Below are positions 12,773-61,444 of a DNA stretch of 64,000 nt, one piece after another. Position 1 is the stretch's first letter. The number at the start of each line of letters is the position of its first letter. Below the pieces are notes generated by a model. It was not told the origin of the DNA, did no database searches, and saw only the letters and a program-made list of their open reading frames with translations. Source of the stretch: Candidatus Nomurabacteria bacterium (GTDB taxonomy: Bacteria > Patescibacteriota > Minisyncoccia > Phycocordibacterales > JAACPR01); the NCBI GenBank assembly GCA_020632215.1, contig JACKFZ010000002.1, positions 8,701 through 72,700 on the forward strand, given 5' to 3'. The translations under genes and the position numbers were made by a program.

Positions 12773-12775
12773 AAA

Positions 12776-42979: not shown

Positions 42980-43069
42980 AAAATGTATACTATAAAAAAT
43001 ATGCTCAAATTACAATAATAAGAATGTTAAATCGCCTTTCACTAGTCACTAAAAACTGAAAACTAGAAA

Positions 43070-43519
43070 TTAATCTTCAAACTTCTTCCTTTCACTAATC
43101 AAAGCATAAAATATATATAGTGTAATGATTATTGGAATTAAACCAACTATTGCTACTCGGCTTGCAGATATATCACCATTTTGTATTTGAGGCAGACTAT
43201 TTATCATGTTTAGAAACTCAGGGGCAGCAAAAGCACTTTTTGCCAATGAAGCCAGTGAGTCCAGAAGAGCTAGGTAGTAGCCCCATTTAGTCATAGTTAC
43301 CAAACCGAATACTATAAATACATAGACTAAGATAAGTAGTGAGTCATGCATTACTATCTCTCCTATTCCTTGCCCTTCTCCTAAAACAGAGAATAGATTA
43401 AGTGATAAACCAATAATAGATAAAATAAATAGAGCGACTACGATTTTTATTCTCAAAGGAATTTTATTATTCTTATTTTTCATACCTAAAATTTTACAGA
43501 TTAAAAAGAATTCAGACAA
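43070..43519 (-). CDS. Small membrane protein, hypothetical
   Basis: 149 aa with 4 hydrophobic helices. Confidence 0.35.
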   Translation of the reverse strand: MSEFFLICKILGMKNKNNKIPLRIKIVVALFILSIIGLSLNLFSVLGEGQGIGEIVMHDSLLILVYVFIVFGLVTMTKWGYYLALLDSLASLAKSAFAAPEFLNMINSLPQIQNGDISASRVAIVGLIPIIITLYIFYALISERKKFED

Positions 43520-44415: not shown

Positions 44416-44829
44416 TTAATTTGATTTTGGTTTCTTAGCTCCATATCGACTTCTTCCCTTAGCTCGTTTTTGAACTCCTTCAGCATCCAAAACACCTCGA
44501 ACAACTGTATATCGAATGTTAACATCCTTTACTCTACCTCCTCGAAGCAATACTACTGAGTGTTCTTGTAGATTATGACCCATACCAGGAATATATGCTG
44601 TTACTTCCATACCATTTGTTAATCTAACCCTAGCAATTTTTCTAATAGCTGAGTTTGGTTTTCTAGGTGTCTTTGTTGTCACTTTTGTACATACACCTCT
44701 TTTAAAAGGAGAGTTATAGTAAGTAGGTCTATTTTTCAAAGTATTGAAACCACGTTGAAGAGCAACAGCCTTTGATTTCTTGGCTGTCCTTGTTCTGTTT
44801 TTTCTTACTAATTGATTGATTGTTGGCAT
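44416..44829 (-). CDS. rpsL: 30S ribosomal protein S12
   Basis: [25 protein letters not shown]...[17 protein letters not shown]. Confidence 0.95.
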
Positions 44830-44984: not shown

Positions 44985-47900
44985 TTACTGAGCGGTGCTT
45001 AGATTGTCACTATTTTGACTTGTTTGCTCAGTATTAGAATCTACTGGCTCTGTTACCGTAGGTTCAATAACCTCCTCAACAGGTGTTGTTTCATCTACAA
45101 CTGGCTCTGGTTCAGATGCTGGAGCTGGGTCTGTTACTTGCTCTTCTATAACAGGATTTTCCTCAACAGGTGTTGTTTCATCTACAACTGGCTCTGGTTC
45201 AGATACTGGAGCCGGGTCACTGGAAGAATCACCACTATCATCGATCAAAGTGTTTTGCAAAGTAGAACTAGTAACATCTTCAGGTGCAGTTCCACACTCT
45301 CCATTCCTTGTCACAGTCATTCCGTTCTTAATACTTAGACAATATGGTTCACCTGTTTCTTCATCATACAAAGTGATACCTGTAGGTTTTTCTGGAGAAC
45401 CAACAGTTAGTTTTTGGAAGACACTAACAACTGATGAGTAGCTATTGTTAGCAATATCTTGTACTTGTTCTGATAATGCTTGAATCTTAGTATTTAATTC
45501 TTTAATTGCAGAAATAATATATGGAATAAATCCACCATAAGATACTGATTTCAAATGCTCTCCATCAGGTGATGTTTTTACTAATTCTGGGAAAATACTT
45601 TCTACTTCTTGTGCAATTAGACCAATTCTCTTTTCGTTGTTTTCATCTGTCTTCCATTCAAATTCTACCGGTTTCAAATCTACAAATTTTGCCAAGATAT
45701 CTTGAGAGGAAAGTTCTGTGATTTCCTCTTTCAATCTTTGGTCTGATGTACAAATCCATGAAGCATCGCTTGGGTCTATTTCACAGTACGCATTTGCATC
45801 TTGGAATCTAACAGGTGAACCACTTGTTGCATGGAATACATGCAATGGTCGTACAGGTGAAGTGGTACCAACTCCAATATAGCCAGAATCACTTATAAAT
45901 ATGGATGTGTTTGACCCAGAATTTATTCCAAAACTTCCACTTGAAGTAATACCGTCTAAATCAAATGTGATTGTGTTTGTGGCATTTCCAAGAATGATAT
46001 TCCCATCTACCGCCAAATCATCGCCGACCGCTAGATTTCCAGCAAAGCTTGAGGTGTTTGTGGCATTTATTACTAATGCACCTCCAAATACTGATGTTGT
46101 TGAACCAACTCGTAAAGAGTCGACCACTGCACGGCCAGTTACATCTAGAGAATTTGCAAATGAAACATTTCCATTCTCATCCAACACAATTGAAGGAGTA
46201 GATGTTGGGGCGCTCAACAAATTGATTCTTTGACCAATTTCTTGAATAGCGTTTACTGTAACAGCTGCAATGTTTCCGTAAGAAATTCCCTTCTTTCCGT
46301 CTTCTCCATGAACAAGTTCTGGCAAGACACCTTCCAATTCTTGCGCCACGAATCCGATTGTCTCTATATATATGTCTTCTCCGAGTTCGTTTTGACCAGC
46401 TTTTATCTTATATCGTCGAGGTATTAAGTCCATAATCTCTGTTAGACCATAGTTCAAATTGACAATATCGCTTTTAATAGAAACATCAGAAGCGTTGGTC
46501 CATTCTCCTGCAGCATTCAAGGTTGCTGTGTTTCCTGCTCCACCTTCAAAGTTTAGAACTTGAGAAGTATTCATATAAATTGCGCGGTAATCTCCATCTG
46601 AGGCCTCTAGGTAAATTCCGCCAGACGCATCATTTGAAGACTGAGTAATGGCCAAAGCACTACTTGGTGATGATGTACCAATTCCAACACCCCCTGACAA
46701 ATAGTAAATATCGCTTCCTGATTGAGCCCAGAAGCTTCCGCTAGAGTCTCCCCCAATAGCAAAGTAAAATTCATCACCTTTTCCAGATGAGTTTGAACTT
46801 GCACTACTTGAGTTGATTCTTAAATTAAACCCATATGCTGTTTGGGATTCATCATCAAGTGGCGCAAAGACACGATCGCTGGCAACTGACCAACTTGTTT
46901 GGACTGATCCTAAAATAGCGTAGTTTGCAGAATCCATTGGGTCTTCAAAGTTAATCCAGTATCGACCTGTGGCAATTTCGGCGACACTATTTACATTTGA
47001 GCTACCAAATATAGCAGTTCTTTCCAAAGTCACATTTCCAGAAGTTGTTCCTGAAGTACCATGAGTAACTGTGAAGGTATTTGCATCTGCAACACTTGTA
47101 ACTGTGAATAATCCATCGGCAGCTGCACCAGTAGTGAAGTTCAAGTAAACTTTATGGCCCACAATATGTCCGTGTGCAGTTGCAGTGACAGTCACAGTAG
47201 TACCTGATCTTGAATATGTACCAGAAAGATCATCATCGGTCGGTCCATTAACATAAGCCCAAGTACTTGTCGCAGAATTTAAGGCGGAAATATCGGCTTC
47301 AAGCGCAACAATTTTGTCATAGATTGCATTTTTGGAAGCGGCACCAGTGTCGCTATCCCAACCCACACCAAAGGCGGTATCGGAAGGAACAATTGGAATC
47401 CAAGACCCTCCGCTGTCTTTGGCTTCAACGACTCCAGAGTTGTCTCGGACTCCATATCCGGTTGATCCAAAAGTGCTTCCAAAGTTTAGATAAGAAGGTC
47501 CAAGTTGTGCATAAGATGCACCATCAGTAAAAGATAAGTTTGTTGAAAGCAAGTCAAACTGATTACTTCCGCTATTAAGCGCGATGCTGTTGTAATTTAA
47601 ATCCAGACCATTACCACTATTCACCGTCTGAACAACAGAAATATCATCATAAACCGTCAAAGTTTTTCCTGTCTGCAGAGTGCTTGCGTTCAAACCAATT
47701 CCAACTTGATTTGCACTGGCATCAACAAACAGACCATGACTAGCGCCAGTTGCCTCCCATCTGAAATCTTCCGTAGTTCCACCAGATTCGTTTCCAACAA
47801 GACCAACTGATGTAGAGAAAGTTAACCCAGCATCGTCTGTTAATGTGTCGGCATCACTTGCAAAAGGAACTCTTCCTGCAGTCAAAGTTCCATCGATACC

Positions 47901-50900
47901 ACCAGAGCTTGCCGCCCACTGAACACCCGTTCCGGTTGACTGAAGAACATAACCACTTGTTCCAAGAGAGGCATTGTTATCGTAAAGTCCTCCAGTCAAA
48001 GCGAAGTCTCCATCAACAGAAAGTGTGGCATACGGAGTCGATGTTCCAACTCCGACTTTTGCTGTTTCAGAACCATTATCTCCTTTAACAACAAAAACTT
48101 CATTATTTAAGACTGATGCTGTAGAGTTATAAATGACAAAATTTACACCGTTAGTATTTATATCAGAGCCTACAGTTAATACATCGGTGATTTGACCTGC
48201 ACCATCATTATTACCAACAACAAAAGCTCTAGTTTGATTGTCTGATTCAACGGCTAAATCACCTGAAGGTGTAGTTGTACCAATTCCAGTAAATCCTGAA
48301 TACCCGCTAATAGTAAACACTGGATAATTTGTTGGTCCCTCCGCTCTTATTGCAGCCTGAAAGATAGGGTTTGTTTGATTGTCAGTACCGACAACAGAGA
48401 ATCTAGCATAAGGACTTGTTGTTCCGACACCTACATGCCCTGCATTATCAGCAAGAAAGATCGTGTCATACTCTGGATCAGCAGAAAATGGTATAGATAA
48501 TAAGAACAGATCATTGGCCTCTGTACCTTCAACTGCCAACGTAGTAGAAACAGTACTTGTTCCAATTCCAAAATAATTATTTGTTGCATCCCAATAAAAA
48601 TCGCCCTTATCTTGAGCCAGATTTCCTGACCCATCAATAAACAAAACCGCACCAGGATCTCCTGAACCAATAGAATCTCCAATTGAGATTGACCCGGATG
48701 ACGCACCCCAAGTTGGAAGTCCACCAGATACAGATAGAACTTGTCCACTTGTTCCAATAGGAAGTTTAGCCAATGAATTTGAACCATCAGCATAAAGAAT
48801 ATCTCCGGCTGTATAAGTTGTAATTCCTGTACCACCATAAACCTCTCCTATAGCACTTCCATTCCATGTACCACTAGTAATAGTTCCTACGGTTGCAAGT
48901 GAAGAAGCACTTGTGAGATTAGCTAAGGTATCAATAGCAGATTCAATAGTAGATTCTGTTGTGGCGTCTAAACTATCAATATTCAGAATTGACGTATTCC
49001 CACCACTATCATAAATAATAGCTGAACTATTGACACTTAGGTAACCATTTGCATCAAGGTTAATTGAATAAACACCATCAATAGAATCTAGATCAGATAT
49101 TGTGATTCCAGAATTTTTAATAATTTTCCCAGTTGTCCCATTAAATCTCACTATTGCATTATTGGTTGCACTAGCTGGGCCACTAACATCTCCACTACCA
49201 CTAGCAACATCTTGCCAAGTTGGTGCTGTCCCTGTTCCATTTGAGGTTAATGTTTGACCACTTGTTCCAAAGAGACCATTCAGTGTTAGATAATTTGTTG
49301 TATTGAAGTTTGTTGTTGTTGCATTAGTAAAGACTCCTGTTGAAGCTGATGAAATACCTATTGGTGTATTATTAATTGTTCCACCTGATATAGTTAGATC
49401 ATTTGCAACATATGTATCAGCAACTGCTGTACCTTGCCATACACCAGTTCCAATAGTTCCAACCGTTGAAAGATTAGCCAAAGTTGTAATGTTTGGAAGT
49501 GTTGTTGTAGCACTTAGTCTGTTATCGAATCTTGTGTTGGTGAAGTAGAGATTGGTTGAACCTTCACTTAAAGCATCAGTGTCTGTTGCATTGAAGAAGT
49601 TGTAGAAAGGAATACCGAAGCTTGTGAGATTTGTGGCATCTAAGTAGTAACTTCCCTCTTGTCCATCGAATGTTCCTGTCCAGTTGCCTGTGGCGTCTAG
49701 AGTAATAGCTTCACCTACACAGTTAATACCTGTTCCTTCAACATCAGAACAATCAAATGATAATGTGTCATCTGTTAAATCAACACCTGTGCTGACTGCT
49801 AGGTTAGTGTTAGCACTAATGTCGATAGTGTCATTGTTAGTAAAGACATTAGTAACACCTGTTAGGAATGATTCAAGTGAGCTTTCGGTATTGTTGTTCC
49901 AGATTGTAGTTGAAGCATTGATGTAATCTGCAACGTCTGTGTCTGTGTAATGAGTTAGATCTGAGATTTGGCTTTCTGTGATTGAAAGATTAGCCAAAGT
50001 TGTAATGTTTGGAAGTGTTGTTGTAGCACTTAGTCTGTTATCGAATCTTGTGTTGGTGAAGTAGAGATTAGTTGAACCTTCACTTAAAGCATCAGTGTCT
50101 GTTGCATTGAAGAAGTTGTAGAAAGGAATACCGAAGCTTGTGAGATTTGTGGCATCTAAGTAGTAACTTCCCTCTTGTCCATCGAATGTTCCTGTCCAGT
50201 TGCCTGTGGCGTCTAGAGTAATAGCTTCACCTACACAGTTAATACCTGTTCCTTCAACATCAGAACAATCAAATGATAATGTGTCATCTGTTAAATCAAC
50301 ACCTGTGCTGACTGCTAGGTTAGTGTTAGCACTAATGTCGATAGTGTCATTGTTAGTAAAGACATTAGTAACACCTGTTAGGAATGATTCAAGTGAGCTT
50401 TCGGTATTGTTGTTCCAGATTGTAGTTGAAGCATTGATGTAATCTGCAACGTCTGTGTCTGTGTAATGAGTTAGATCTGAGATTTGGCTTTCTGTGATTG
50501 AAAGATTAGCCAAAGTTGTAATGTTTGGAAGTGTTGTTGTAGCACTTAGTCTGTTATCGAATCTTGTGTTGGTGAAGTAGAGATTAGTTGAACCTTCACT
50601 TAAAGCATCAGTGTCTGTTGCATTGAAGAAGTTGTAGAAAGGAATACCGAAGCTTGTGAGATTTGTGGCATCTAAGTAGTAACTTCCCTCTTGTCCATCG
50701 AATGTTCCTGTCCAGTTGCCTGTGGCGTCTAGAGTAATAGCTTCACCTACACAGTTAATACCTGTTCCTTCAACATCAGAACAATCAAATGATAATGTGT
50801 CATCTGTTAAATCAACACCTGTGCTGACTGCTAGGTTAGTGTTAGCACTAATGTCGATAGTGTCATTGTTAGTAAAGACATTAGTAACACCTGTTAGGAA

Positions 50901-53900
50901 TGATTCAAGTGAGCTTTCGGTATTGTTGTTCCAGATTGTAGTTGAAGCATTGATGTAATCTGCAACGTCTGTGTCTGTGTAATGAGTTAGATCTGAGATT
51001 TGGCTTTCTGTGATTGAAAGATTAGCCAAAGTTGTAATGTTTGGAAGTGTTGTTGTAGCACTTAGTCTGTTATCGAATCTTGTGTTGGTGAAGTAGAGAT
51101 TAGTTGAACCTTCACTTAAAGCATCAGTGTCTGTTGCATTGAAGAAGTTGTAGAAAGGAATACCGAAGCTTGTGAGATTTGTGGCATCTAAGTAGTAACT
51201 TCCCTCTTGTCCATCGAATGTTCCTGTCCAGTTGCCTGTGGCGTCTAGAGTAATAGCTTCACCTACACAGTTAATACCTGTTCCTTCAACATCAGAACAA
51301 TCAAATGATAATGTGTCATCTGTTAAATCAACACCTGTGCTGACTGCTAGGTTAGTGTTAGCACTAATGTCGATAGTGTCATTGTTAGTAAAGACATTAG
51401 TAACACCTGTTAGGAATGATTCAAGTGAGCTTTCGGTATTGTTGTTCCAGATTGTAGTTGAAGCATTGATGTAATCTGCAACGTCTGTGTCTGTGTAATG
51501 AGTTAGATCTGAGATTTGGCTTTCTGTGATTGAAAGATTAGCCAAAGTTGTAATGTTTGGAAGTGTTGTTGTAGCACTTAGTCTGTTATCGAATCTTGTG
51601 TTGGTGAAGTAGAGATTAGTTGAACCTTCACTTAAAGCATCAGTGTCTGTTGCATTGAAGAAGTTGTAGAAAGGAATACCGAAGCTTGTGAGATTTGTGG
51701 CATCTAAGTAGTAACTTCCCTCTTGTCCATCGAATGTTCCTGTCCAGTTGCCTGTGGCGTCTAGAGTAATAGCTTCACCTACACAGTTAATACCTGTTCC
51801 TTCAACATCAGAACAATCAAATGATAATGTGTCATCTGTTAAATCAACACCTGTGCTGACTGCTAGGTTAGTGTTAGCACTAATGTCGATAGTGTCATTG
51901 TTAGTAAAGACATTAGTAACACCTGTTAGGAATGATTCAAGTGAGCTTTCGGTATTGTTGTTCCAGATTGTAGTTGAAGCATTGATGTAATCTGCAACGT
52001 CTGTGTCTGTGTAATGAGTTAGATCTGAGATTTGGCTTTCTGTGATTGAAAGATTAGCCAAAGTTGTAATGTTTGGAAGTGTTGTTGTAGCACTTAGTCT
52101 GTTATCGAATCTTGTGTTGGTGAAGTAGAGATTAGTTGAACCTTCACTTAAAGCATCAGTGTCTGTTGCATTGAAGAAGTTGTAGAAAGGAATACCGAAG
52201 CTTGTGAGATTTGTGGCATCTAAGTAGTAACTTCCCTCTTGTCCATCGAATGTTCCTGTCCAGTTGCCTGTGGCGTCTAGAGTAATAGCTTCACCTACAC
52301 AGTTAATACCTGTTCCTTCAACATCAGAACAATCAAATGATAATGTGTCATCTGTTAAATCAACACCTGTGCTGACTGCTAGGTTAGTGTTAGCACTAAT
52401 GTCGATAGTGTCATTGTTAGTAAAGACATTAGTAACACCTGTTAGGAATGATTCAAGTGAGCTTTCGGTATTGTTGTTCCAGATTGTAGTTGAAGCATTG
52501 ATGTAATCTGCAACGTCTGTGTCTGTGTAATGAGTTAGATCTGAGATTTGGCTTTCTGTGATTGAAAGATTAGCCAAAGTTGTAATGTTTGGAAGTGTTG
52601 TTGTAGCACTTAGTCTGTTATCGAATCTTGTGTTGGTGAAGTAGAGATTAGTTGAACCTTCACTTAAAGCATCAGTGTCTGTTGCATTGAAGAAGTTGTA
52701 GAAAGGAATACCGAAGCTTGTGAGATTTGTGGCATCTAAGTAGTAACTTCCCTCTTGTCCATCGAATGTTCCTGTCCAGTTGCCTGTGGCGTCTAGAGTA
52801 ATAGCTTCACCTACACAGTTAATACCTGTTCCTTCAACATCAGAACAATCAAATGATAATGTGTCATCTGTTAAATCAACACCTGTGCTGACTGCTAGGT
52901 TAGTGTTAGCACTAATGTCGATAGTGTCATTGTTAGTAAAGACATTAGTAACACCTGTTAGGAATGATTCAAGTGAGCTTTCGGTATTGTTGTTCCAGAT
53001 TGTAGTTGAAGCATTGATGTAATCTGCAACGTCTGTGTCTGTGTAATGAGTTAGATCTGAGATTTGGCTTTCTGTGATTGAAAGATTAGCCAAAGTTGTA
53101 ATGTTTGGAAGTGTTGTTGTAGCACTTAGTCTGTTATCGAATCTTGTGTTGGTGAAGTAGAGATTAGTTGAACCTTCACTTAAAGCATCAGTGTCTGTTG
53201 CATTGAAGAAGTTGTAGAAAGGAATACCGAAGCTTGTGAGATTTGTGGCATCTAAGTAGTAACTTCCCTCTTGTCCATCGAATGTTCCTGTCCAGTTGCC
53301 TGTGGCGTCTAGAGTAATAGCTTCACCTACACAGTTAATACCTGTTCCTTCAACATCAGAACAATCAAATGATAATGTGTCATCTGTTAAATCAACACCT
53401 GTGCTGACTGCTAGGTTAGTGTTAGCACTAATGTCGATAGTGTCATTGTTAGTAAAGACATTAGTAACACCTGTTAGGAATGATTCAAGTGAGCTTTCGG
53501 TATTGTTGTTCCAGATTGTAGTTGAAGCATTGATGTAATCTGCAACGTCTGTGTCTGTGTAATGAGTTAGATCTGAGATTTGGCTTTCTGTGATTGAAAG
53601 ATTAGCCAAAGTTGTAATGTTTGGAAGTGTTGTTGTAGCACTTAGTCTGTTATCGAATCTTGTGTTGGTGAAGTAGAGATTAGTTGAACCTTCACTTAAA
53701 GCATCAGTGTCTGTTGCATTGAAGAAGTTGTAGAAAGGAATACCGAAGCTTGTGAGATTTGTGGCATCTAAGTAGTAACTTCCCTCTTGTCCATCGAATG
53801 TTCCTGTCCAGTTGCCTGTGGCGTCTAGAGTAATAGCTTCACCTACACAGTTAATACCTGTTCCTTCAACATCAGAACAATCAAATGATAATGTGTCATC

Positions 53901-56900
53901 TGTTAAATCAACACCTGTGCTGACTGCTAGGTTAGTGTTAGCACTAATGTCGATAGTGTCATTGTTAGTAAAGACATTAGTAACACCTGTTAGGAATGAT
54001 TCAAGTGAGCTTTCGGTATTGTTGTTCCAGATTGTAGTTGAAGCATTGATGTAATCTGCAACGTCTGTGTCTGTGTAATGAGTTAGATCTGAGATTTGGC
54101 TTTCTGTGATTGAAAGATTAGCCAAAGTTGTAATGTTTGGAAGTGTTGTTGTAGCACTTAGTCTGTTATCGAATCTTGTGTTGGTGAAGTAGAGATTAGT
54201 TGAACCTTCACTTAAAGCATCAGTGTCTGTTGCATTGAAGAAGTTGTAGAAAGGAATACCGAAGCTTGTGAGATTTGTGGCATCTAAGTAGTAACTTCCC
54301 TCTTGTCCATCGAATGTTCCTGTCCAGTTGCCTGTGGCGTCTAGAGTAATAGCTTCACCTACACAGTTAATACCTGTTCCTTCAACATCAGAACAATCAA
54401 ATGATAATGTGTCATCTGTTAAATCAACACCTGTGCTGACTGCTAGGTTAGTGTTAGCACTAATGTCGATAGTGTCATTGTTAGTAAAGACATTAGTAAC
54501 ACCTGTTAGGAATGATTCAAGTGAGCTTTCGGTATTGTTGTTCCAGATTGTAGTTGAAGCATTGATGTAATCTGCAACGTCTGTGTCTGTGTAATGAGTT
54601 AGATCTGAGATTTGGCTTTCTGTGATTGAAAGATTAGCCAAAGTTGTAATGTTTGGAAGTGTTGTTGTAGCACTTAGTCTGTTATCGAATCTTGTGTTGG
54701 TGAAGTAGAGATTAGTTGAACCTTCACTTAAAGCATCAGTGTCTGTTGCATTGAAGAAGTTGTAGAAAGGAATACCGAAGCTTGTGAGATTTGTGGCATC
54801 TAAGTAGTAACTTCCCTCTTGTCCATCGAATGTTCCTGTCCAGTTGCCTGTGGCGTCTAGAGTAATAGCTTCACCTACACAGTTAATACCTGTTCCTTCA
54901 ACATCAGAACAATCAAATGATAATGTGTCATCTGTTAAATCAACACCTGTGCTGACTGCTAGGTTAGTGTTAGCACTAATGTCGATAGTGTCATTGTTAG
55001 TAAAGACATTAGTAACACCTGTTAGGAATGATTCAAGTGAGCTTTCGGTATTGTTGTTCCAGATTGTAGTTGAAGCATTGATGTAATCTGCAACGTCTGT
55101 GTCTGTGTAATGAGTTAGATCTGAGATTTGGCTTTCTGTGATTGAAAGATTAGCCAAAGTTGTAATGTTTGGAAGTGTTGTTGTAGCACTTAGTCTGTTA
55201 TCGAATCTTGTGTTGGTGAAGTAGAGATTAGTTGAACCTTCACTTAAAGCATCAGTGTCTGTTGCATTGAAGAAGTTGTAGAAAGGAATACCGAAGCTTG
55301 TGAGATTTGTGGCATCTAAGTAGTAACTTCCCTCTTGTCCATCGAATGTTCCTGTCCAGTTGCCTGTGGCGTCTAGAGTTAGTGCACCGCTTGAGATTGT
55401 TAGACCTGAACCTGTGAGGTCTGTTACGTATTCCGAGTTAATTCCAAATGTGTCTGTGTAGAAGGTGGTTGAGGTTGCACCAGTAACTGTAATGTCATCA
55501 AAAAGAGAATCCCCAATAACCTCTAAGATATACCCTGATGATGTTGTCGCACTACCACCTACAATAACAACATCAGATGTGTCATCTGGGTATATGGCTA
55601 GATTATCTGTGGTCGTTGCCCAAACTCCAGATCCTCCACCTCCTCCTGTTGAATCAGCTCCCCAAGTCGGCACACCTCCAGAAACTTTCAAAACTTGACC
55701 GCTAGACCCTATAGGCAACTTAGCTAATGAATTGGCACCATCAGCATAAAGAATATCACCCGTCGTGTATGTTGTAATTCCAGTGCCACCATAGACTTCT
55801 CCTATAACACTTCCATTCCACACACCACTTGTAATAGTTCCTATAGTAGCAAGTGAAGAAGCAGATGTTAGATTAGATAAGGTATCAATAGCAGATTCAA
55901 TAGTAGATTCTGTTGTGGTATCTAGTGCATCAATGTTTGAGAGAGTAGCTGTTCCTGCTGAGTCAGTAATAATAGATGTTCCAGCTATTGTTAAACTTCC
56001 ACTTGTATTTAGATCTACAGATGCTACACCATCTATGTTATTTGAATCATCTATGGTGATTCCTGAATTTTGAATGGTTGTTCCTGTTATTCCGTTAAAT
56101 CTTACTATTGCGTTATCTGTAGCTCCAATTGGACCTGAGACATTGCCAGCTCCTGAGGGAGTTGCCCAAGTTCCATCTCCTCGCCAAAATGTTGCACTTG
56201 ATGCTCCGGTTCCTGAGCCTAAGTTTGTGACAGGAAGATTTCCACTAACATCACTTGCCAAATCAACCTGATCCAGAGTAATTTGTTGTCCTGATAATGT
56301 GAGGTAATCATAAGAGCCTGCAAGTGTGACTGGATCATGTGAAGAAATACCTAGAGATGATGTGGCTACCGTGTCCCATCTACTACCTGTCCAGTACAGC
56401 ACATCTCCATATGCACTACCTGCTTCGTGTGCAATTGTAGTTGAAGCATTGATATATGAAGCAACTCTTGCATCTGTAAAATACAAATTGGTACCTCCTT
56501 CACTTAGAGCATCTGTAGTAGTACCTGCAAGATGACCTGCAAAGTCTGTAATTGTGTAGTGATCTAGATTACTGATTTGAGATTCAGTGATTGAAAGATT
56601 AGGTAGTGCTGTGATTGAAGCAACAGATGATGTGGCAGCCAAGCTTGAAGTGAATCTGTTTTCTGTGTAGTAGAAGTTGTTTGATCCTTCACTTAGAGCG
56701 TCTGTGGTTGTGGCATACCAGTTTGCAAGTGATAGATAGTTTGAAGCTGTTATGTTGTCGTCTATGTATGCATCGCCGATTGAAGTCCCATTCCACACAC
56801 CTGAAGTAATAGTACCTACTGTGGAAAGATTAGGAAGAGCAGTTAGCGTACCAACTGATGATGTTGCATTGATTCGTGCATCTGCTCTGGCATTGGTGAA

Positions 56901-59342
56901 GTAGAGATTAGTTGAACCTTCACTTAAAGCATCAGTGTCTGTTGCATTGAAGAAGTTGTAGAAAGGAATACCGAAGCTTGTGAGATTTGTGGCATCTAAG
57001 TAGTAACTTCCCTCTTGTCCATCGAATGTTCCTGTCCAGTTGCCTGTGGCGTCTAGAGTAATAGCTTCACCTACACAGTTAATACCTGTTCCTTCAACAT
57101 CAGAACAATCAAATGATAATGTGTCATCTGTTAAATCAACACCTGTGCTGACTGCTAGGTTAGTGTTAGCACTAATGTCGATAGTGTCATTGTTAGTAAA
57201 GACATTAGTAACACCTGTTAGGAATGATTCAAGTGAGCTTTCGGTATTGTTGTTCCAGATTGTAGTTGAAGCATTGATGTAATCTGCAACGTCTGTGTCT
57301 GTGTAATGAGTTAGATCTGAGATTTGGCTTTCTGTGATTGAAAGATTAGCCAAAGTTGTAATGTTTGGAAGTGTTGTTGTAGCACTTAGTCTGTTATCGA
57401 ATCTTGTGTTGGTGAAGTAGAGATTGGTTGAACCTTCACTTAAAGCATCAGTGTCTGTTGCATTGAAGAAGTTGTAGAAAGGAATACCGAAGCTTGTGAG
57501 ATTTGTGGCATCTAAGTAGTAACTTCCCTCTTGTCCATCGAATGTTCCTGTCCAGTTGCCTGTGGCGTCTAGAGTTAGTGCACCGCTTGAGATTGTTAGA
57601 CCTGAACCTGTGAGGTCTGTTACGTATTCCGAGTTAATTCCAAATGTGTCTGTGTAGAAGGTGGTTGAGGTTGCATTTGTGGTTGTCGAATTTTCAAATA
57701 ATGCATTTCCATTCACGTCCAAAGTTGTTCCGACATCAAAAGTTAATGTTCCAGAAGTAAACGAATCGCTAGCATCACTTCTAAGGAATTGTGTTGAATC
57801 GAAACTATCCAAAGTTGTTGCATCTCCACCTCCGCCACCTCCAGAAATCCCAAGCGAGCTCGTTGCTACCCACTCCACTCCTGATCCTGTTGTTTGCAAA
57901 ACATAACCATTTGTTCCAGCAGAACCATTAGTATCATAGAACTTTCCTGAAAGACTAGCGTCTGTTATATCAACTGATGGCAATGTAGAAGTCGCTGATG
58001 AAGTAGCTATGAAATATGAAGCTCGAACATCTCCATCAAATACTCCGTCCCCAGCAACAGACAAGGTTTTATACGGACTCGAAGTTCCAATACCCAATTT
58101 CTTGTTTGTTTGATCCCAATAGAAATTACTGTTGTCTTGTGACAGAAGACCTGATGAATCTATATACAAAACAGATCCACTAGTACCACTAGTGATGCTA
58201 CTTCCAATTGAAACACTAGCACTGACTGCTCCCCAAATAGGATCTGTACCTGTTCCTTGAGAAATAAGAGCTTGTCCTGATGTGCCCCATAAACCGTTTA
58301 AAGTAAATCCGCCTTCAAAATCTATATCGCCAGAAATTGTTGACGATGAATTTGTAACGGTAATTGTAGAAAATGTTGTATCACCCGCTGTTAGAGAATC
58401 ATTCCCAATATCAATTGATCCAAAACCAGAAGTAATAGATCCAGAATCTAAAACACCAACCGAAGTTGCATCAGCAACTGTACTGTAGTTTGTACTACTT
58501 CCTCCGTAAATATTTTTTATTGTTACACCTTGTCCTGAAAAGGATTCAATTTTGTTATTCAAATCATTCAAAACTTTTTCAATTGATGAAAGATTGATAC
58601 CACTAACAATAACAGGGGAGGTGTAGACTGTTTGAGAAACAACTCGATCTGGAATATTATTTGCGACATTCGAATTATCACTTTGATTGTCAGCAACCAA
58701 AACTTTTTTATCCTGACAAGAATTAAAACCTATCCAACTGGTGAAACCACAGTAAACATTTTTGATAAAACTTTTTACAAAAGTTCCTTCACTAGCAACT
58801 GCCAATTGATTTGAAGGATCACTAATTTTTGATGTATTTATTTTTTCAAAAACAGAATCTAAACTGTCACTAACATTGGCTACTAATCTATGAGCGAAAT
58901 CTGAAGTCTCCACAAGAGAACCTTCTACAAAATTTTTGCTAGCAAGTTGTTGAGAGAAATTTGCAGGAATCATCCCACTAGCCACCAAAGCAAAAATAAA
59001 AAAGAAAGAAGTTGTTAGATAAAATCCACGCAAAAAGTTTTTAGCTTTTTTGTCCTCTTGATGTTTATAAAATGAACTTCCAATTCTAGCTTGGGAAGCT
59101 TGCTTGTATGCTGTAGATTTTTCTTGAGACAATTCTTCTGATCGCCTAGTTTTTTCTATAGCCATCCTCTCGATATATTCCCTGACAGATTTCTCTTCTA
59201 CTAGCCATGCTCTTCCCACCATCTTTCCATCCAACATTCCTTGTCGACAAAGTCGCCCGACATAGTCGCTACTATAACCCAAAAGGTTGGCGGCCTCTTT
59301 GGCTGAAATATATTTTTTATTATCAATATCAAAACGATTCAT
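44985..59342 (-). CDS. Giant (4,785 aa) tail-fibre-like surface protein: N-terminal excisionase-type HTH, one TM helix, large T/S/N/G-rich repeat ectodomain, two C-terminal Peptidase_S74 intramolecular-chaperone domains
   Basis: The single ORF is open over 14,358 nt. Residues about 10-60 (ISAKEAANLLGYSSDYVGRLCRQGMLDGKMVGRAWLVEEKSVREYI) match the excisionase/MerR-type HTH pattern. The TM helix FYLTTSFFFIFALVASGMIPANF is at about residues 105-127. The recurring tail-fibre motif GIGT.SPy..L.V.GD occurs several times. About 11.5 nucleotide-identical 172-aa repeats. Near the C-terminus are two S74-like domains (SDVSIKSDIVNL...IGFVAQELEGVLPELV...YGNIAAVTVNAIQEIGQRINLL and SDQRLKEEITEL...IGLIAQEVESIFPELV...GFIPYIISAIKELNTKIQAL). 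The C-terminal tail carries the duplicated motif DPAPxSEPEPVVDETTPVEE. Confidence 0.8.
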   Translation of the reverse strand: MNRFDIDNKKYISAKEAANLLGYSSDYVGRLCRQGMLDGKMVGRAWLVEEKSVREYIERMAIEKTRRSEELSQEKSTAYKQASQARIGSSFYKHQEDKKAKNFLRGFYLTTSFFFIFALVASGMIPANFSQQLASKNFVEGSLVETSDFAHRLVANVSDSLDSVFEKINTSKISDPSNQLAVASEGTFVKSFIKNVYCGFTSWIGFNSCQDKKVLVADNQSDNSNVANNIPDRVVSQTVYTSPVIVSGINLSSIEKVLNDLNNKIESFSGQGVTIKNIYGGSSTNYSTVADATSVGVLDSGSITSGFGSIDIGNDSLTAGDTTFSTITVTNSSSTISGDIDFEGGFTLNGLWGTSGQALISQGTGTDPIWGAVSASVSIGSSITSGTSGSVLYIDSSGLLSQDNSNFYWDQTNKKLGIGTSSPYKTLSVAGDGVFDGDVRASYFIATSSATSTLPSVDITDASLSGKFYDTNGSAGTNGYVLQTTGSGVEWVATSSLGISGGGGGGDATTLDSFDSTQFLRSDASDSFTSGTLTFDVGTTLDVNGNALFENSTTTNATSTTFYTDTFGINSEYVTDLTGSGLTISSGALTLDATGNWTGTFDGQEGSYYLDATNLTSFGIPFYNFFNATDTDALSEGSTNLYFTNTRFDNRLSATTTLPNITTLANLSITESQISDLTHYTDTDVADYINASTTIWNNNTESSLESFLTGVTNVFTNNDTIDISANTNLAVSTGVDLTDDTLSFDCSDVEGTGINCVGEAITLDATGNWTGTFDGQEGSYYLDATNLTSFGIPFYNFFNATDTDALSEGSTNLYFTNARADARINATSSVGTLTALPNLSTVGTITSGVWNGTSIGDAYIDDNITASNYLSLANWYATTTDALSEGSNNFYYTENRFTSSLAATSSVASITALPNLSITESQISNLDHYTITDFAGHLAGTTTDALSEGGTNLYFTDARVASYINASTTIAHEAGSAYGDVLYWTGSRWDTVATSSLGISSHDPVTLAGSYDYLTLSGQQITLDQVDLASDVSGNLPVTNLGSGTGASSATFWRGDGTWATPSGAGNVSGPIGATDNAIVRFNGITGTTIQNSGITIDDSNNIDGVASVDLNTSGSLTIAGTSIITDSAGTATLSNIDALDTTTESTIESAIDTLSNLTSASSLATIGTITSGVWNGSVIGEVYGGTGITTYTTGDILYADGANSLAKLPIGSSGQVLKVSGGVPTWGADSTGGGGGSGVWATTTDNLAIYPDDTSDVVIVGGSATTSSGYILEVIGDSLFDDITVTGATSTTFYTDTFGINSEYVTDLTGSGLTISSGALTLDATGNWTGTFDGQEGSYYLDATNLTSFGIPFYNFFNATDTDALSEGSTNLYFTNTRFDNRLSATTTLPNITTLANLSITESQISDLTHYTDTDVADYINASTTIWNNNTESSLESFLTGVTNVFTNNDTIDISANTNLAVSTGVDLTDDTLSFDCSDVEGTGINCVGEAITLDATGNWTGTFDGQEGSYYLDATNLTSFGIPFYNFFNATDTDALSEGSTNLYFTNTRFDNRLSATTTLPNITTLANLSITESQISDLTHYTDTDVADYINASTTIWNNNTESSLESFLTGVTNVFTNNDTIDISANTNLAVSTGVDLTDDTLSFDCSDVEGTGINCVGEAITLDATGNWTGTFDGQEGSYYLDATNLTSFGIPFYNFFNATDTDALSEGSTNLYFTNTRFDNRLSATTTLPNITTLANLSITESQISDLTHYTDTDVADYINASTTIWNNNTESSLESFLTGVTNVFTNNDTIDISANTNLAVSTGVDLTDDTLSFDCSDVEGTGINCVGEAITLDATGNWTGTFDGQEGSYYLDATNLTSFGIPFYNFFNATDTDALSEGSTNLYFTNTRFDNRLSATTTLPNITTLANLSITESQISDLTHYTDTDVADYINASTTIWNNNTESSLESFLTGVTNVFTNNDTIDISANTNLAVSTGVDLTDDTLSFDCSDVEGTGINCVGEAITLDATGNWTGTFDGQEGSYYLDATNLTSFGIPFYNFFNATDTDALSEGSTNLYFTNTRFDNRLSATTTLPNITTLANLSITESQISDLTHYTDTDVADYINASTTIWNNNTESSLESFLTGVTNVFTNNDTIDISANTNLAVSTGVDLTDDTLSFDCSDVEGTGINCVGEAITLDATGNWTGTFDGQEGSYYLDATNLTSFGIPFYNFFNATDTDALSEGSTNLYFTNTRFDNRLSATTTLPNITTLANLSITESQISDLTHYTDTDVADYINASTTIWNNNTESSLESFLTGVTNVFTNNDTIDISANTNLAVSTGVDLTDDTLSFDCSDVEGTGINCVGEAITLDATGNWTGTFDGQEGSYYLDATNLTSFGIPFYNFFNATDTDALSEGSTNLYFTNTRFDNRLSATTTLPNITTLANLSITESQISDLTHYTDTDVADYINASTTIWNNNTESSLESFLTGVTNVFTNNDTIDISANTNLAVSTGVDLTDDTLSFDCSDVEGTGINCVGEAITLDATGNWTGTFDGQEGSYYLDATNLTSFGIPFYNFFNATDTDALSEGSTNLYFTNTRFDNRLSATTTLPNITTLANLSITESQISDLTHYTDTDVADYINASTTIWNNNTESSLESFLTGVTNVFTNNDTIDISANTNLAVSTGVDLTDDTLSFDCSDVEGTGINCVGEAITLDATGNWTGTFDGQEGSYYLDATNLTSFGIPFYNFFNATDTDALSEGSTNLYFTNTRFDNRLSATTTLPNITTLANLSITESQISDLTHYTDTDVADYINASTTIWNNNTESSLESFLTGVTNVFTNNDTIDISANTNLAVSTGVDLTDDTLSFDCSDVEGTGINCVGEAITLDATGNWTGTFDGQEGSYYLDATNLTSFGIPFYNFFNATDTDALSEGSTNLYFTNTRFDNRLSATTTLPNITTLANLSITESQISDLTHYTDTDVADYINASTTIWNNNTESSLESFLTGVTNVFTNNDTIDISANTNLAVSTGVDLTDDTLSFDCSDVEGTGINCVGEAITLDATGNWTGTFDGQEGSYYLDATNLTSFGIPFYNFFNATDTDALSEGSTNLYFTNTRFDNRLSATTTLPNITTLANLSITESQISDLTHYTDTDVADYINASTTIWNNNTESSLESFLTGVTNVFTNNDTIDISANTNLAVSTGVDLTDDTLSFDCSDVEGTGINCVGEAITLDATGNWTGTFDGQEGSYYLDATNLTSFGIPFYNFFNATDTDALSEGSTNLYFTNTRFDNRLSATTTLPNITTLANLSTVGTIGTGVWQGTAVADTYVANDLTISGGTINNTPIGISSASTGVFTNATTTNFNTTNYLTLNGLFGTSGQTLTSNGTGTAPTWQDVASGSGDVSGPASATNNAIVRFNGTTGKIIKNSGITISDLDSIDGVYSINLDANGYLSVNSSAIIYDSGGNTSILNIDSLDATTESTIESAIDTLANLTSASSLATVGTITSGTWNGSAIGEVYGGTGITTYTAGDILYADGSNSLAKLPIGTSGQVLSVSGGLPTWGASSGSISIGDSIGSGDPGAVLFIDGSGNLAQDKGDFYWDATNNYFGIGTSTVSTTLAVEGTEANDLFLLSIPFSADPEYDTIFLADNAGHVGVGTTSPYARFSVVGTDNQTNPIFQAAIRAEGPTNYPVFTISGYSGFTGIGTTTPSGDLAVESDNQTRAFVVGNNDGAGQITDVLTVGSDINTNGVNFVIYNSTASVLNNEVFVVKGDNGSETAKVGVGTSTPYATLSVDGDFALTGGLYDNNASLGTSGYVLQSTGTGVQWAASSGGIDGTLTAGRVPFASDADTLTDDAGLTFSTSVGLVGNESGGTTEDFRWEATGASHGLFVDASANQVGIGLNASTLQTGKTLTVYDDISVVQTVNSGNGLDLNYNSIALNSGSNQFDLLSTNLSFTDGASYAQLGPSYLNFGSTFGSTGYGVRDNSGVVEAKDSGGSWIPIVPSDTAFGVGWDSDTGAASKNAIYDKIVALEADISALNSATSTWAYVNGPTDDDLSGTYSRSGTTVTVTATAHGHIVGHKVYLNFTTGAAADGLFTVTSVADANTFTVTHGTSGTTSGNVTLERTAIFGSSNVNSVAEIATGRYWINFEDPMDSANYAILGSVQTSWSVASDRVFAPLDDESQTAYGFNLRINSSSASSNSSGKGDEFYFAIGGDSSGSFWAQSGSDIYYLSGGVGIGTSSPSSALAITQSSNDASGGIYLEASDGDYRAIYMNTSQVLNFEGGAGNTATLNAAGEWTNASDVSIKSDIVNLNYGLTEIMDLIPRRYKIKAGQNELGEDIYIETIGFVAQELEGVLPELVHGEDGKKGISYGNIAAVTVNAIQEIGQRINLLSAPTSTPSIVLDENGNVSFANSLDVTGRAVVDSLRVGSTTSVFGGALVINATNTSSFAGNLAVGDDLAVDGNIILGNATNTITFDLDGITSSGSFGINSGSNTSIFISDSGYIGVGTTSPVRPLHVFHATSGSPVRFQDANAYCEIDPSDASWICTSDQRLKEEITELSSQDILAKFVDLKPVEFEWKTDENNEKRIGLIAQEVESIFPELVKTSPDGEHLKSVSYGGFIPYIISAIKELNTKIQALSEQVQDIANNSYSSVVSVFQKLTVGSPEKPTGITLYDEETGEPYCLSIKNGMTVTRNGECGTAPEDVTSSTLQNTLIDDSGDSSSDPAPVSEPEPVVDETTPVEENPVIEEQVTDPAPASEPEPVVDETTPVEEVIEPTVTEPVDSNTEQTSQNSDNLSTAQ
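49466..55378. repeat. Perfect 516-bp (172-aa) tandem repeat array, about 11.5 copies, inside the giant gene
   Basis: The nucleotide sequence recurs with an exact 516-nt period. Antisense ORFs with identical translations begin at 49684, 50200, ... 54844. The first copy differs at 49551 (g versus a). An extra copy and its flank (about 56880..57680) duplicate 54800..55480. Confidence 0.9.
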
Positions 59343-59533
59343 TGAGTACTATTTGCGTTGCGGATAAGTGGTTGCAGTCACCTATTCCATAGCTCAGATT
59401 TGGGTGAATTCCCTTGACGCATTTCGAGAAAATTCACTACCTATATTTTATCGTCCATGTACATATTTATATATAAAAAATAACTTGCCCGTGTGGACAA
59501 GTTCGTTCATCCGAAAAAACTATATTTTACAAG

Positions 59534-60142
59534 CTATATCGGATATCCAGTAAAAATTTTAACCAGCCAAAATATTAACGGAGTAAAAAATTTCCAGATG
59601 AAGAAGATAAATATAATGATCAGAAAAAAGCCTTGTTTCTCAATGGTTTCACGCAATCCTAAATATTTTTGAGGTAAAAGCGAAAATAATACTTTTGATC
59701 CATCTAGCGGAGGAATAGGGATTAAATTAAAAATAGCCAAGACAACATTAATAATTACAATCAGCATTGATATTTCATAAAAAGATGGTGTAACTAGATT
59801 TCCGCCAAATTTTATAAAAATTCCAAAAATAAATGCAATAAAAAGATTTGAAAATGGGCCAGCAATTGCTACCAAAAATTCGCCCCATCTTCTATTTTTT
59901 AAATTATACGGATTATATGGAACAGGCTTTGCCCAGCCAAAAATAAATCCCCCGGGGAGAATTGCTAGCAACAATGGAAAAATAATTGAACCAAACACAT
60001 CTAAATGTTTCACCGGATTCAAAGTTAATCTTCCTTGATATTGTGCTGTCCTATCCCCCAAGGCCAAGGCCATATATCCATGAGAAACTTCATGGACAAC
60101 AGCTGACATAATTAAGACAATAATTGAAAAAATAATTTCCAT
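59534..60142 (-). CDS. Site-2 protease (M50 family) intramembrane zinc metalloprotease, small form
   Basis: The HExxH motif sits in a TM helix (VVHEVSHGYMAL). The second motif NLIPIPPLDGSKV matches the S2P NxxPxxxLDGG signature. Several TM helices. The start is placed at MEIIF because the upstream extension overlaps a repeated intergenic motif. Confidence 0.7.
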   Translation of the reverse strand: MEIIFSIIVLIMSAVVHEVSHGYMALALGDRTAQYQGRLTLNPVKHLDVFGSIIFPLLLAILPGGFIFGWAKPVPYNPYNLKNRRWGEFLVAIAGPFSNLFIAFIFGIFIKFGGNLVTPSFYEISMLIVIINVVLAIFNLIPIPPLDGSKVLFSLLPQKYLGLRETIEKQGFFLIIIFIFFIWKFFTPLIFWLVKIFTGYPI

Positions 60143-60338
60143 AAATTTAAAAAATGAAATCCGAAATACAAAATTCGAAACATTAGTTGGAAACACAAAT
60201 TTAGTTTATAAAGACTTTCGGATTTCGTGCTTCGTGCTTCGAATTTCTCTTGGTTGCATTATAAAGAAAGTGTGTTAGGATAGCAAAACCTAATTCTCCA
60301 ACCTAATTAGAAAACAGGAGAGATTTAAGAAAAAAGAT

Positions 60339-60581
60339 ATGGCAAATAAATGCGACATCACAGGAAAAAAAACTAGAGTAGGAGGAGGTTACTCAAACCG
60401 AACTCGTGCTACTCAATTCAATCCTTCAGGAAAAAGACGAAGGAAAGTTAACCTGCAAAAGAAAAAAGTTTTTGTTCCAGAAATTGGAAAATCGGTGACA
60501 CTAAATATTTCTGCAAAAGCTATCAAAACCATCAACAAAAAAGGTGCGTACAAAACTTTGAAAGACGCAAATTTAATTTAA
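60339..60581 (+). CDS. rpmB: 50S ribosomal protein L28
   Basis: MANKCDITGKKTRVGGGYSNRTRATQFNPSGKRRRKVNLQKK... An AGGAGA RBS lies upstream. Confidence 0.85.
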   Translation: MANKCDITGKKTRVGGGYSNRTRATQFNPSGKRRRKVNLQKKKVFVPEIGKSVTLNISAKAIKTINKKGAYKTLKDANLI

Positions 60582-61444
60582 TTTTCGAACCACACTTCCC
60601 TACCATTGGATCTCGCAACAATCGTCGCGAGATTTTTTGTTTCAAAAATTTCTACATTAAATTTTTTTAGTGAATCCAAAACTTCTTGATGAGGATGTCC
60701 GAACGAATTATTTTTTCCTGCAGAAATAATTCCATACTTTGCTTTTACAAAACCAAGAAATAAATCTGATGTTGAAGTGTTGGATCCGTGATGCCCAACT
60801 TTTAAAACATCACTCTCTAAATAATTACCAAAAATTGAAATTAAATATTGTTCAACATTTTTTGGTGAATCACCTGTTAAGAGAAAAGAAGTTTTCCCAT
60901 AAATTAATTTTGCAACAATTGATGTTTCGTTTTTTTCATTCGTAACAAAATCATCATCAGGGAATAAGATATCTAGATAGATGTCGCGATCTATATCAAG
61001 AAAAATCTTATCTCCTCTTTTGACATTTATAAGTTTGGCATTCTGTTGACTACTTCTTTTTTCAATTTCAAAAACAATATCAGTATCTTCATGTTTCTCT
61101 GATTCAAATAAATAGTCAGTGGAATAAGATGATAAAACAGCAGGAAAACCTCCAATATGATCTGCATCAGGATGAGTCATCAAAATAGCATCAATATTTT
61201 TATCAAACCAACTTAACTTTTTTCCTACCTCTTCAACAACTTTCCCATCTAAACCCGCATCAACAAGAACCTGATTACCATTAGGAGACTCGATCAAGAT
61301 AGCGTCACCTTGCCCAACATCGAGAAAATAAACTGACAACAATTCCTTTTCTTTTACAAAATGAATGTTTTTAAAAAGAAAGACTGCAGAAAATAGTAAT
61401 AATACTGTTAAAAATACGATATATAAAAATCTTTTTGTCAGCAT
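60578..61444 (-). CDS. MBL-fold metallo-hydrolase of the ComEC C-terminal-domain type (standalone, N-terminal TM anchor)
   Basis: YFLDVGQGDAILIESPNGNQVLVDAG...ILMTHPDADHIGG...LKVGHHGS...GHPHQEVL reproduces the ComEC/Rec2 beta-lactamase-domain motifs. Confidence 0.65.
   Translation of the reverse strand: MLTKRFLYIVFLTVLLLFSAVFLFKNIHFVKEKELLSVYFLDVGQGDAILIESPNGNQVLVDAGLDGKVVEEVGKKLSWFDKNIDAILMTHPDADHIGGFPAVLSSYSTDYLFESEKHEDTDIVFEIEKRSSQQNAKLINVKRGDKIFLDIDRDIYLDILFPDDDFVTNEKNETSIVAKLIYGKTSFLLTGDSPKNVEQYLISIFGNYLESDVLKVGHHGSNTSTSDLFLGFVKAKYGIISAGKNNSFGHPHQEVLDSLKKFNVEIFETKNLATIVARSNGREVWFEN

Follow-up and report, generated by a model that had tools for sequence, protein, structure and literature searches.

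The locus and its giant gene

The stretch of DNA considered here (64,000 nt of contig JACKFZ010000002.1, from a Candidatus Nomurabacteria bacterium), which in its full length is called the window, contains on its minus strand a giant gene of 4,785 codons. Judging from its sequence, this gene belongs to a large family of Patescibacteria (class Paceibacteria), whose products are surface fibres similar to phage tail fibres, with a type II membrane anchor, and whose hallmark is a helix-turn-helix (HTH) domain. An earlier note on this DNA had described a giant tail-fibre-like protein with an excisionase-type HTH and one transmembrane (TM) helix, and had interpreted it, together with an adjacent site-2 protease (S2P) gene of the M50 family, as a contact-sensing module of regulated intramembrane proteolysis (RIP). 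All the anatomical features are indeed present where the note had placed them; the protease-linked mechanism, in contrast, did not stand. The reading frame and its N-terminal features are as follows (here and below, residue numbers are those of the giant protein unless otherwise stated):

44985..59342, minus strand: giant open reading frame (ORF), 4,785 aa, candidate type II membrane-anchored fibre protein (ORF listing and translation)
59166..59312, minus strand: excisionase/Xis-type winged HTH, residues 11-59 (HTH_17, TIGR01764, PHROG, AlphaFold, Foldseek)
59067..59195, minus strand: long charged cytoplasmic helix, residues 50-92, which joins the HTH to the membrane (AlphaFold)
58968..59033, minus strand: single TM helix, residues ~104-125, N-in (Kyte-Doolittle scan, flanking charges, AlphaFold)

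The giant ORF is uninterrupted over its 4,785 codons. The ATG at position 59342 is the first start codon downstream of an in-frame stop, and the HTH, the linker and the TM helix lie in a single reading frame without any stop. The next in-frame methionine is M36 and a start at that codon would truncate the HTH. A Shine-Dalgarno (SD)-like site was found upstream of none of the 25 window genes checked, whose upstream regions are A/T-rich; consequently, SD sites cannot discriminate among alternative start codons. Apparently, this organism does not rely on SD-led initiation (0/25 gene starts). In any case, since the architecture of HTH, TM helix and fibre (often with a Peptidase_S74 domain) recurs across many independent genomes, the predicted translation start is M1 and the fusion of the HTH to the giant protein is genuine; a start downstream of the HTH, which the earlier note had kept in mind as a pitfall, does not apply.

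The G+C content of the giant gene (39-43 %) is higher than that of its flanks (32-36 %), and the encoded protein is rich in threonine (14.9 %), serine (11.2 %), glycine (9.2 %) and asparagine (8.5 %). An Rfam scan of the whole window, including the 191-nt leader of the giant gene, returned no RNA family. The giant protein was not found in a large protein collection by a word-indexed search with residues 1-240, the neighbouring M50 protein being present there; the same collection, queried with an alignment of N-terminal modules, yielded only 13 short fragments.

The cytoplasmic module and the transmembrane helix

Profile searches with the N-terminus agree with the HTH assignment of the earlier note: residues 11-59 match Pfam HTH_17 (PF12728) with 33.6 bits (cut-off 27; E 4.7e-8), and the same HTH matches NCBIfam TIGR01764 ('excise', excisionase family DNA-binding) with 33 bits (cut-off 28.8). 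It is matched by PHROG excisionase families as well and, furthermore, a profile of the N-terminal module of the family scores the window protein at E 9.7e-30.

The AlphaFold model of residues 1-135, generated from a 14-sequence alignment, predicts a winged helix with a pLDDT above 95 across residues 1-75. Its elements are (i) a beta-hairpin; (ii) helices at residues 14-21 and 25-33; (iii) a wing at residues 39-49; and (iv) a long helix at residues 50-92, in which the motif 'RR.EL..E...Y' is common to many family members. A low-confidence linker comes next, and then a helix at residues 104-121 which corresponds to the TM helix. When the first ~50 residues were compared with the PDB by Foldseek, the matches included the Xis protein of mycobacteriophage Pukovnik (TM-score 0.71-0.74, rmsd 1.7 Å) and BldC (0.7-0.8, rmsd 1.5-1.7 Å), as well as TraN, the RdfS excisionase and RacA, with probabilities of 0.95-1.0 and with E-values that, given the small size of the domain, are weak (at least 0.017). 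These fold relatives all bind DNA, and most of them are cooperative or architectural binders; RacA, for instance, tethers the chromosome to the cell pole. DNA binding by the HTH of the giant protein is hence predicted, and the basic isoelectric point (pI), the conserved R33 and the GRxW wing lend it indirect support. Three residues, D26, Y27 and G43, do not vary in the family, and A17, G22, Y23, C32, R33, W46, V48 and S52 are nearly invariant.

Strongly hydrophobic 19-residue windows on the Kyte-Doolittle scale start, in the whole protein, at residues 103-111 only. On its N-terminal side the TM helix has KKAKNFLR and on the other an acidic stretch, and the pI changes from 9.5 before the helix to 4.05 after it. 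In the same direction, lysines plus arginines are more numerous before the TM helix than after it in 71 of 92 family proteins, with 8 ties (positive-inside rule). The predicted topology is thus single-pass and N-in, with the HTH in the cytoplasm.

The fibre-like ectodomain

Beyond the membrane, the protein continues with an acidic, T/S/G/N/D-rich ectodomain of ~4,660 residues, in which the following modules can be distinguished:

56541..57572, minus strand: two diverged 172-aa copies of a fibre unit, residues 591-934 (script-measured repeats)
49701..55376, minus strand: eleven tandem 172-aa (516-nt) units, residues 1323-3214 (script-measured repeats)
46320..46490, minus strand: Peptidase_S74 intramolecular chaperone domain 1, SDVSIK at residue 4285 (Pfam, PDB match, motif)
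45576..45746, minus strand: Peptidase_S74 domain 2, residues 4533-4589, SDQRLK at residue 4533 (Pfam, PHROG, motif)
44988..45425, minus strand: C-terminal tail, with a conserved Cys-containing block, PTGITLYDEETGEPYCLSIKNG, and then a P/E/T-rich low-complexity end (translation; the block is also found in P0070)

The ectodomain has many matches to PHROG tail-fibre families (E down to 2e-33), and the giant protein contains six GIGT-type loops. The 172-aa units carry the motif 'ALSEG.NLYFT', also present in phage minor tail proteins. Ten successive pairs of the 516-nt units are 100 % identical at the DNA level, in an array that begins more than 3.9 kb from the N-terminus. Such identity points either to a very recent expansion or contraction, and hence to a fibre of variable size, or to an uncertain copy number in the assembly.

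Regarding the C-terminal part, the two S74 domains proposed in the earlier note are both there: Peptidase_S74 (PF13884) matches in two stretches (88.1 bits, E 4.6e-25), each of which retains an intact catalytic Ser-x4-Lys (SDxxxK) motif, and IG(F/L)(I/V)AQE blocks are found at residues 4329 and 4573. Autocleavage of the S74 domains and trimerisation of the fibre upstream of them are therefore predicted. The C-terminal 670 residues match the distal subunit of a long tail fibre, together with its S74 chaperone (PDB 6f45), and Bd2133 from Bdellovibrio bacteriovorus (PDB 8ond, E 1.8e-4).

Since these modules occur piecemeal in other giants of the family, the ectodomain can be described as a mosaic. 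In particular, the 172-aa unit is common to the giants of loci L075, L066, L073 and L068 (E down to 3e-54), and the C-terminal 500 residues are common to the window protein and L076 (E 1e-64).

A family of predicted surface fibres in Paceibacteria

With residues 1-240 as the query, exhaustive HMMER searching gave 5,318 protein clusters at E<=1e-3, 631 of them at E<=1e-10. Among the best 150 clusters, 145 have two tandem HTHs and 132 a TM helix after the last HTH, and 17 reach at least 600 aa. The long members, when read directly, have one or two HTHs, one TM helix, thousands of T/S/G-rich residues and GIGTTSP loops, often with S74 near the C-terminus. Pfam detects HTH_17 and Peptidase_S74 together in P0025, P0043 and P0064, and S74 also in L076; L033, L034 and L074 are family members without S74.

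For the genomic context, representative genomes were scanned with a 10-sequence alignment (an earlier alignment of 46 HTH segments was too diverse), and 80 loci, each of up to ±10 kb, were kept from 403 matching stretches. The N-terminal module of the window protein recurs in 35 giants of those loci, a giant being here a protein that exceeds 600 aa or is truncated at the end of a contig. The titles of 78 of the 80 loci refer to metagenome-assembled genomes (MAGs) of Patescibacteria type or unclassified ('uncultured bacterium'), the named taxa being Paceibacteria, Taylor-, Kaiser-, Zambryski- and Nomurabacteria. The two remaining labels are odd: L052 and L059 are short contigs of MAGs called Acidimicrobiales and Nitrospira which carry Paceibacteria-type HTH-TM genes, and L052 also has the SecA gene found in Paceibacteria loci. 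Contamination during binning is the likely explanation. Among 2.9 million viral contigs, by comparison, only one related locus was found; for this reason, the family is regarded as cellular.

The genes conserved immediately upstream of the family genes, on the same strand, are gatB (69 of 80 loci) and obg (60 of 80), with secA further up in 26. None of the three is found in the window, so the giant gene here occupies a different site from that of most family members. In 17 loci, a small gene for a protein with two HTHs and one TM helix lies directly upstream of the giant HTH-TM gene. Small proteins of this kind, of 300-400 aa and with one or two tandem HTHs plus one TM helix, are encoded, in many Paceibacteria, between obg-gatB and the giant fibre gene; their genes are located around positions 8400-10000 in L002, L004, L005, L011, L016, L024, L034, L044, L046, L053, L060 and L078. 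Database relatives of 300-400 aa often end in 'FSD.V.V.PD.SGTAGVITPVF...G..F.YV.VPV'. No small HTH-TM gene of that kind is present in the window. The small HTH-TM protein and the giant may act together.

The M50 gene and the variable slot

The small M50 gene that the earlier note had reported close upstream of the giant gene, with HEVSH and LDG motifs, was confirmed; it lies on the same strand, 191 nt away. The features of the surrounding interval are:

59534..60142, minus strand: small M50 site-2 protease family gene (ORF to 60196, likely ATG at 60142; HEVSH, PPLDG, Pfam)
59482..59503, minus strand: terminator-like hairpin with a 9-bp G+C-rich stem and a T-run (-12.5 kcal/mol; z -4.1 against shuffles)
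44416..44829, minus strand: rpsL, the other edge of the variable slot and the conserved downstream neighbour of the M50 gene in relatives (gene order of relatives)

The M50 ORF matches Pfam M50 at E 1.4e-16 and encodes a polytopic membrane protein with intact HExxH and LDG, in a minimal form of ~200 aa that lacks PDZ and CBS domains. A database protein of 100 % identity is entitled 'site-2 protease family protein [Candidatus Nomurabacteria bacterium]'; an exact look-up of the M50 protein and of this identical database protein gave no contig on record. The hairpin is situated 31 nt past the M50 stop codon, between the M50 gene and the giant gene.

The proposal that both genes form a contact-sensing RIP module would be reflected in a conserved adjacency, a requirement that the earlier note had itself set. 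In the 80 family loci, 54 of which have a full 10 kb upstream, no M50 homologue was found by (i) a hidden Markov model (HMM) search at E<=1e-4; (ii) a relaxed search at E<=10; or (iii) a motif scan for hydrophobic HExxH...LDG ORFs, and these searches recovered only the window's own gene. The adjacency is hence not conserved, and the RIP module is not supported.

The gene order of relatives points to the same view. Orthologues of the M50 protein, with 59-86 % identity, are found, in five separate contexts, in the conserved order ComEC, superoxide dismutase (SOD; opposite strand), metallo-beta-lactamase (MBL), rpmB (opposite strand) and M50. What follows M50 differs among them: (i) in L086 and L087, rpsL-rpsG-fusA come directly; (ii) in L082, one Y1 transposase gene lies between M50 and rpsL (slot 10596-11168); (iii) in L084 and L085, one methyltransferase gene does (slot 10693-11706 in L084); and (iv) in L081, the closest relative, four secreted or surface proteins without HTH are encoded after M50 (10840-14810), up to the contig end. 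One of the slot proteins of L081 resembles a WxL-interacting protein. Searches of these M50 loci by tblastn with the N- and C-terminal parts of the giant protein gave no match in any of them. Since its content differs among relatives and the giant is not found there, the interval from M50 to rpsL can be called a variable slot, which in the lineage of the window is occupied by the giant gene. The M50 gene, for its part, is a housekeeping gene of the conserved rpmB-M50-rpsL neighbourhood, outside the system of the giant gene, and its proximity is a local accident rather than a conserved signalling module.

Regarding proteolysis itself, canonical S2Ps, such as those of the RseP and RasP systems, cleave only once the ectodomain has been cut back to a short stub near the membrane. 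No recognisable cleavage motif was found near the TM helix, the only sites being those of S74, and M50 is the sole protease gene in the flanks of the giant gene; an unrecognised site may exist. The S74 sites (residues 4285 and 4533) are separated from the membrane by more than 4,100 residues and, in consequence, can neither free the HTH nor serve as a canonical site-1 cut; the suggestion that S74 autoprocessing acts as a trigger was therefore abandoned. Cleavage of the giant protein in trans by the housekeeping M50 protease could occur, with only the topology in its favour.

Two other peculiarities of the neighbourhood can be mentioned. Between rpsG and fusA, at 42617-43519 on the minus strand, there are two ORFs, one of 149 aa without a family match and one of 120 aa which is SnoaL-like; in relatives, fusA directly follows rpsG with no counterpart of these ORFs, which represent a second lineage-specific insertion in the str operon. 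On the other side, ComEC is split into two ORFs, both on the minus strand (DUF4131 plus Competence, 62397-63752; metallo-beta-lactamase part, 60578-61444), with a superoxide dismutase gene on the opposite strand between them, an arrangement that is kept in L081, L082, L084 and L087.

Comparison with known systems

The closest analogues of the ectodomain are the mosaic adhesive trimer (MAT) fibres of Bdellovibrio, that is, cell-encoded, tail-fibre-like trimeric beta-helices on the predator surface which have been implicated in prey recognition (PMC10769870). They present V-G-x-x-x-x-P-x-x-x-L capping loops, and 13 of 21 members end in a self-cleaving S74 domain with SDxxxK; the Bd3182 fibre measures ~550 Å (PMC10769870). 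The window protein is, like Bd3182 and Bd2133, cell-encoded and tail-fibre-like, with a putative trimeric beta-helix, in a bacterium which, as Bdellovibrio does, would live on other bacteria, and contains capping loops of the V-G-x-G-x-x-P-x-x-x-L type known from MATs, e.g. GIGTSSPYKTLSV. Both families have mosaic tips and comprise subfamilies that end in S74 and others that do not. But while MAT fibres begin with a signal peptide and a ~130-aa domain that is conserved and rich in beta structure, the window protein starts with an HTH, a long helix and a TM helix; given these different N-termini, it would be MAT-like in its working without being a member of the MAT family. It also differs in its length of 4,785 aa, in having two S74 domains in series, and in its long array of identical repeats.

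Among described proteins, only the myelin regulatory factor (MYRF), a transcription factor of eukaryotes that is bound to the membrane and has an S74/ICA domain (PMC3742443, PMC8326128), unites a DNA-binding domain (DBD) with S74 and a TM helix. MYRF and, by prediction, the giant protein join in one polypeptide a DBD, a triple-beta-helix with a self-cleaving S74 trimerisation domain and one TM helix. The order is nevertheless different: DBD, beta-helix/S74 and TM in MYRF, where self-cleavage frees a DBD trimer, versus HTH, TM, fibre and S74 in the giant protein. With S74 across the membrane and more than 4,100 residues off, a release of the HTH in the manner of MYRF is ruled out. Besides, the DBDs are of unrelated types (Ndt80-like in MYRF, Xis/MerR-like in the giant).

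As for membrane-tethered regulators, the S2P systems RseA/RseP, RsiW/RasP and pro-sigmaK/SpoIVFB share with the giant protein an N-in single-pass candidate substrate, a cytoplasmic regulatory domain and an M50 protease nearby; on the contrary, the giant has no conserved link to a protease (0/80) and no recognisable site-1 near the membrane, and the M50 gene belongs to a housekeeping neighbourhood. In ToxR, TcpP and CadC, too, a cytoplasmic DNA-binding domain at the N-terminus is followed by one TM helix and an extracytoplasmic domain, and these proteins can act on DNA while in the membrane. They combine an OmpR-type winged helix with a small periplasmic sensor, whereas the giant combines an excisionase-type HTH with a fibre of several thousand residues. 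Finally, the small MerR-like winged-helix proteins of the Xis/BldC/RacA type (PDB 4j2n, 6ama, 5i44) are the best structural matches for residues 1-60. RacA, like the giant protein, joins such an HTH to a long helix, and it tethers DNA to a membrane-associated site; unlike the giant, proteins of this type are soluble and none is fused to a TM helix or an extracellular domain.

Proposed working and alternative explanations

The interpretation favoured here, with moderate confidence, is that the protein is a trimeric host-attachment fibre on a type II anchor, the HTH of which acts while tethered, and that the M50 protease is not linked to it. The TM helix would serve as a signal anchor for export of the ectodomain; the S74 chaperones would nucleate trimerisation from the C-terminus and then cleave themselves off at Ser4285 and/or Ser4533; and the product would be a trimeric beta-helical fibre of great length, with three TM helices as its base (export, trimerisation and cleavage being modelled on known S74 proteins and on the MAT fibres of Bdellovibrio). 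Its length would be ~0.3 µm, a rough extrapolation from the ~0.7 Å per residue of MAT Bd3182 (~550 Å for a mature fibre of ~780 residues). Such a fibre likely recognises, or attaches to, the host cell of a probably episymbiotic bacterium. Beneath the membrane, three basic Xis/BldC-like HTHs would be clustered, and they may resemble Xis, BldC and RacA in binding DNA for an architectural or tethering purpose; alternatively, the HTH could work as a membrane-bound one-component regulator such as ToxR or CadC, with no need for release in either case. That the HTH acts while still tethered is most likely, because its fold relatives are architectural DNA binders, most members of the family have tandem copies and no release mechanism is evident.

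Several points weigh against this interpretation. For every member of the family, trimerisation, cleavage by S74, exposure at the surface and DNA binding are predictions and, as far as the evidence goes, the HTH could bind DNA at the membrane, be released by proteolysis or interact with another protein. S2P substrates have the same type II topology, and the genome has an M50 gene, so that cleavage in trans could occur. The AlphaFold model derives from a shallow alignment of 14 sequences, with Foldseek E-values no better than 0.017, and the assembly may give no more than an estimate of how many identical repeats there are, and thereby of the exact length of the protein.

Among the alternatives, the one to be taken most seriously is that the HTH is a protein-protein or assembly module which docks the base of the fibre either to one shared partner in the cytoplasm or to the small HTH-TM protein whose gene adjoins many giants, much as the HTH of RodZ binds MreB. 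It is serious since the HTH is conserved across paralogues with unrelated ectodomains (40-60 % identity, with invariant D26, Y27 and G43 and near-invariant C32, R33 and W46), which would fit a common partner better than many different operators, and since the small 2xHTH-TM gene lies directly upstream of the giant in 17 loci. It is nonetheless judged unlikely: the closest folds are all DNA binders, the module is basic (pI 9.5), the canonical excisionase wing 'GRxW' and the recognition-helix arginine are retained, and architectural binders such as Xis, BldC and RacA have conserved HTHs too. Far less probable is the RIP scheme of the earlier note, by which host contact or S74 autoprocessing would lead the adjacent M50 protease to cleave the TM segment and free the HTH as a transcription factor. 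An N-in single-pass topology like that of S2P substrates, an M50 protein with intact HExxH and LDG, a distance of 191 nt on the same strand and a credible DNA-binding fold all fit it, but the adjacency is unique to the genome of the window (M50 in 0 of 80 homologous loci), the orthologous M50 gene abuts rpsL (L086, L087) or is one unrelated gene away (L082, L084/L085), a terminator-like hairpin stands between both genes, more than 4,100 residues separate the S74 sites from the membrane (too distant, and thus rejected as a site-1 cut) and there is no site-1 protease candidate nearby.

It is hardly credible that the architecture is an artefact, either of a mis-assembly or frameshift fusing an HTH gene to a fibre gene, or of a start after the TM helix. 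The perfectly identical 516-nt repeats within the gene, the lack of an SD site at its start and the absence of the giant protein from the large protein collection could raise that suspicion; yet HTH, linker and TM helix share one frame without a stop, a start at M36 would cut the HTH, no window gene checked uses SD, the repeats begin more than 3.9 kb from the N-terminus and, above all, 35 giants of independent genomes and 17 additional database proteins show the same fusion. This candidate was rejected in view of that recurrence. A prophage or phage-derived tail-fibre gene, made for a virion or tailocin and not for the cell, is just as improbable: the S74 domains, the many PHROG tail-fibre matches and a G+C content above that of the flanks would agree with such an origin, but the gene is flanked by M50, rpsL, rpsG and fusA with no other phage genes nearby, an N-terminal cytoplasmic domain with a TM anchor is incompatible with a virion fibre, and the family is chromosomal and syntenic (obg-gatB-HTH genes, 60-69 of 80 loci) with one locus in viral contigs. 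It was discarded on account of its flanks without phage genes and the near absence of the family from viral contigs.

Returning to the tethered fibre favoured here, a more far-reaching idea, offered tentatively and considered improbable, is that the HTH-TM-fibre proteins and the small 2xHTH-TM proteins constitute a direct system of signalling or tethering from the surface to the chromosome. Trimerisation or host engagement would then alter DNA binding by the three clustered Xis/BldC-like domains on the inner side of the membrane, with or without proteolytic release. If true, contact with the host could influence the gene expression of an ultra-small episymbiont, or the organisation of its nucleoid, and no classical two-component relay would be needed.

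Novelty and meaning of the family

Pfam and NCBIfam hold models for the separate domains only, with no curated family for the HTH-TM-fibre architecture, and no description of such proteins in CPR (candidate phyla radiation) bacteria was found in the full-text literature searched, the coverage of which does not extend to all journals. In agreement with the impression recorded in the earlier note, the fusion of an HTH to a giant adhesin thus appears to be undescribed. The family combines two known kinds of protein: (i) cell-encoded tail-fibre-like adhesins; and (ii) membrane-tethered HTH proteins.

How CPR/Patescibacteria recognise their hosts and attach to them is largely obscure, and the finding bears on both processes. 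Paceibacteria carry a big, rapidly diversifying family of predicted tail-fibre-like surface fibres, each with a cytoplasmic domain of DNA-binding type, which resemble the prey-recognition fibres of Bdellovibrio and are anchored differently. The tempting inference that the neighbouring site-2 protease is the dedicated partner of the giant protein is removed and, at the same time, concrete constructs are suggested for studying host attachment and a possible link from the membrane to DNA.

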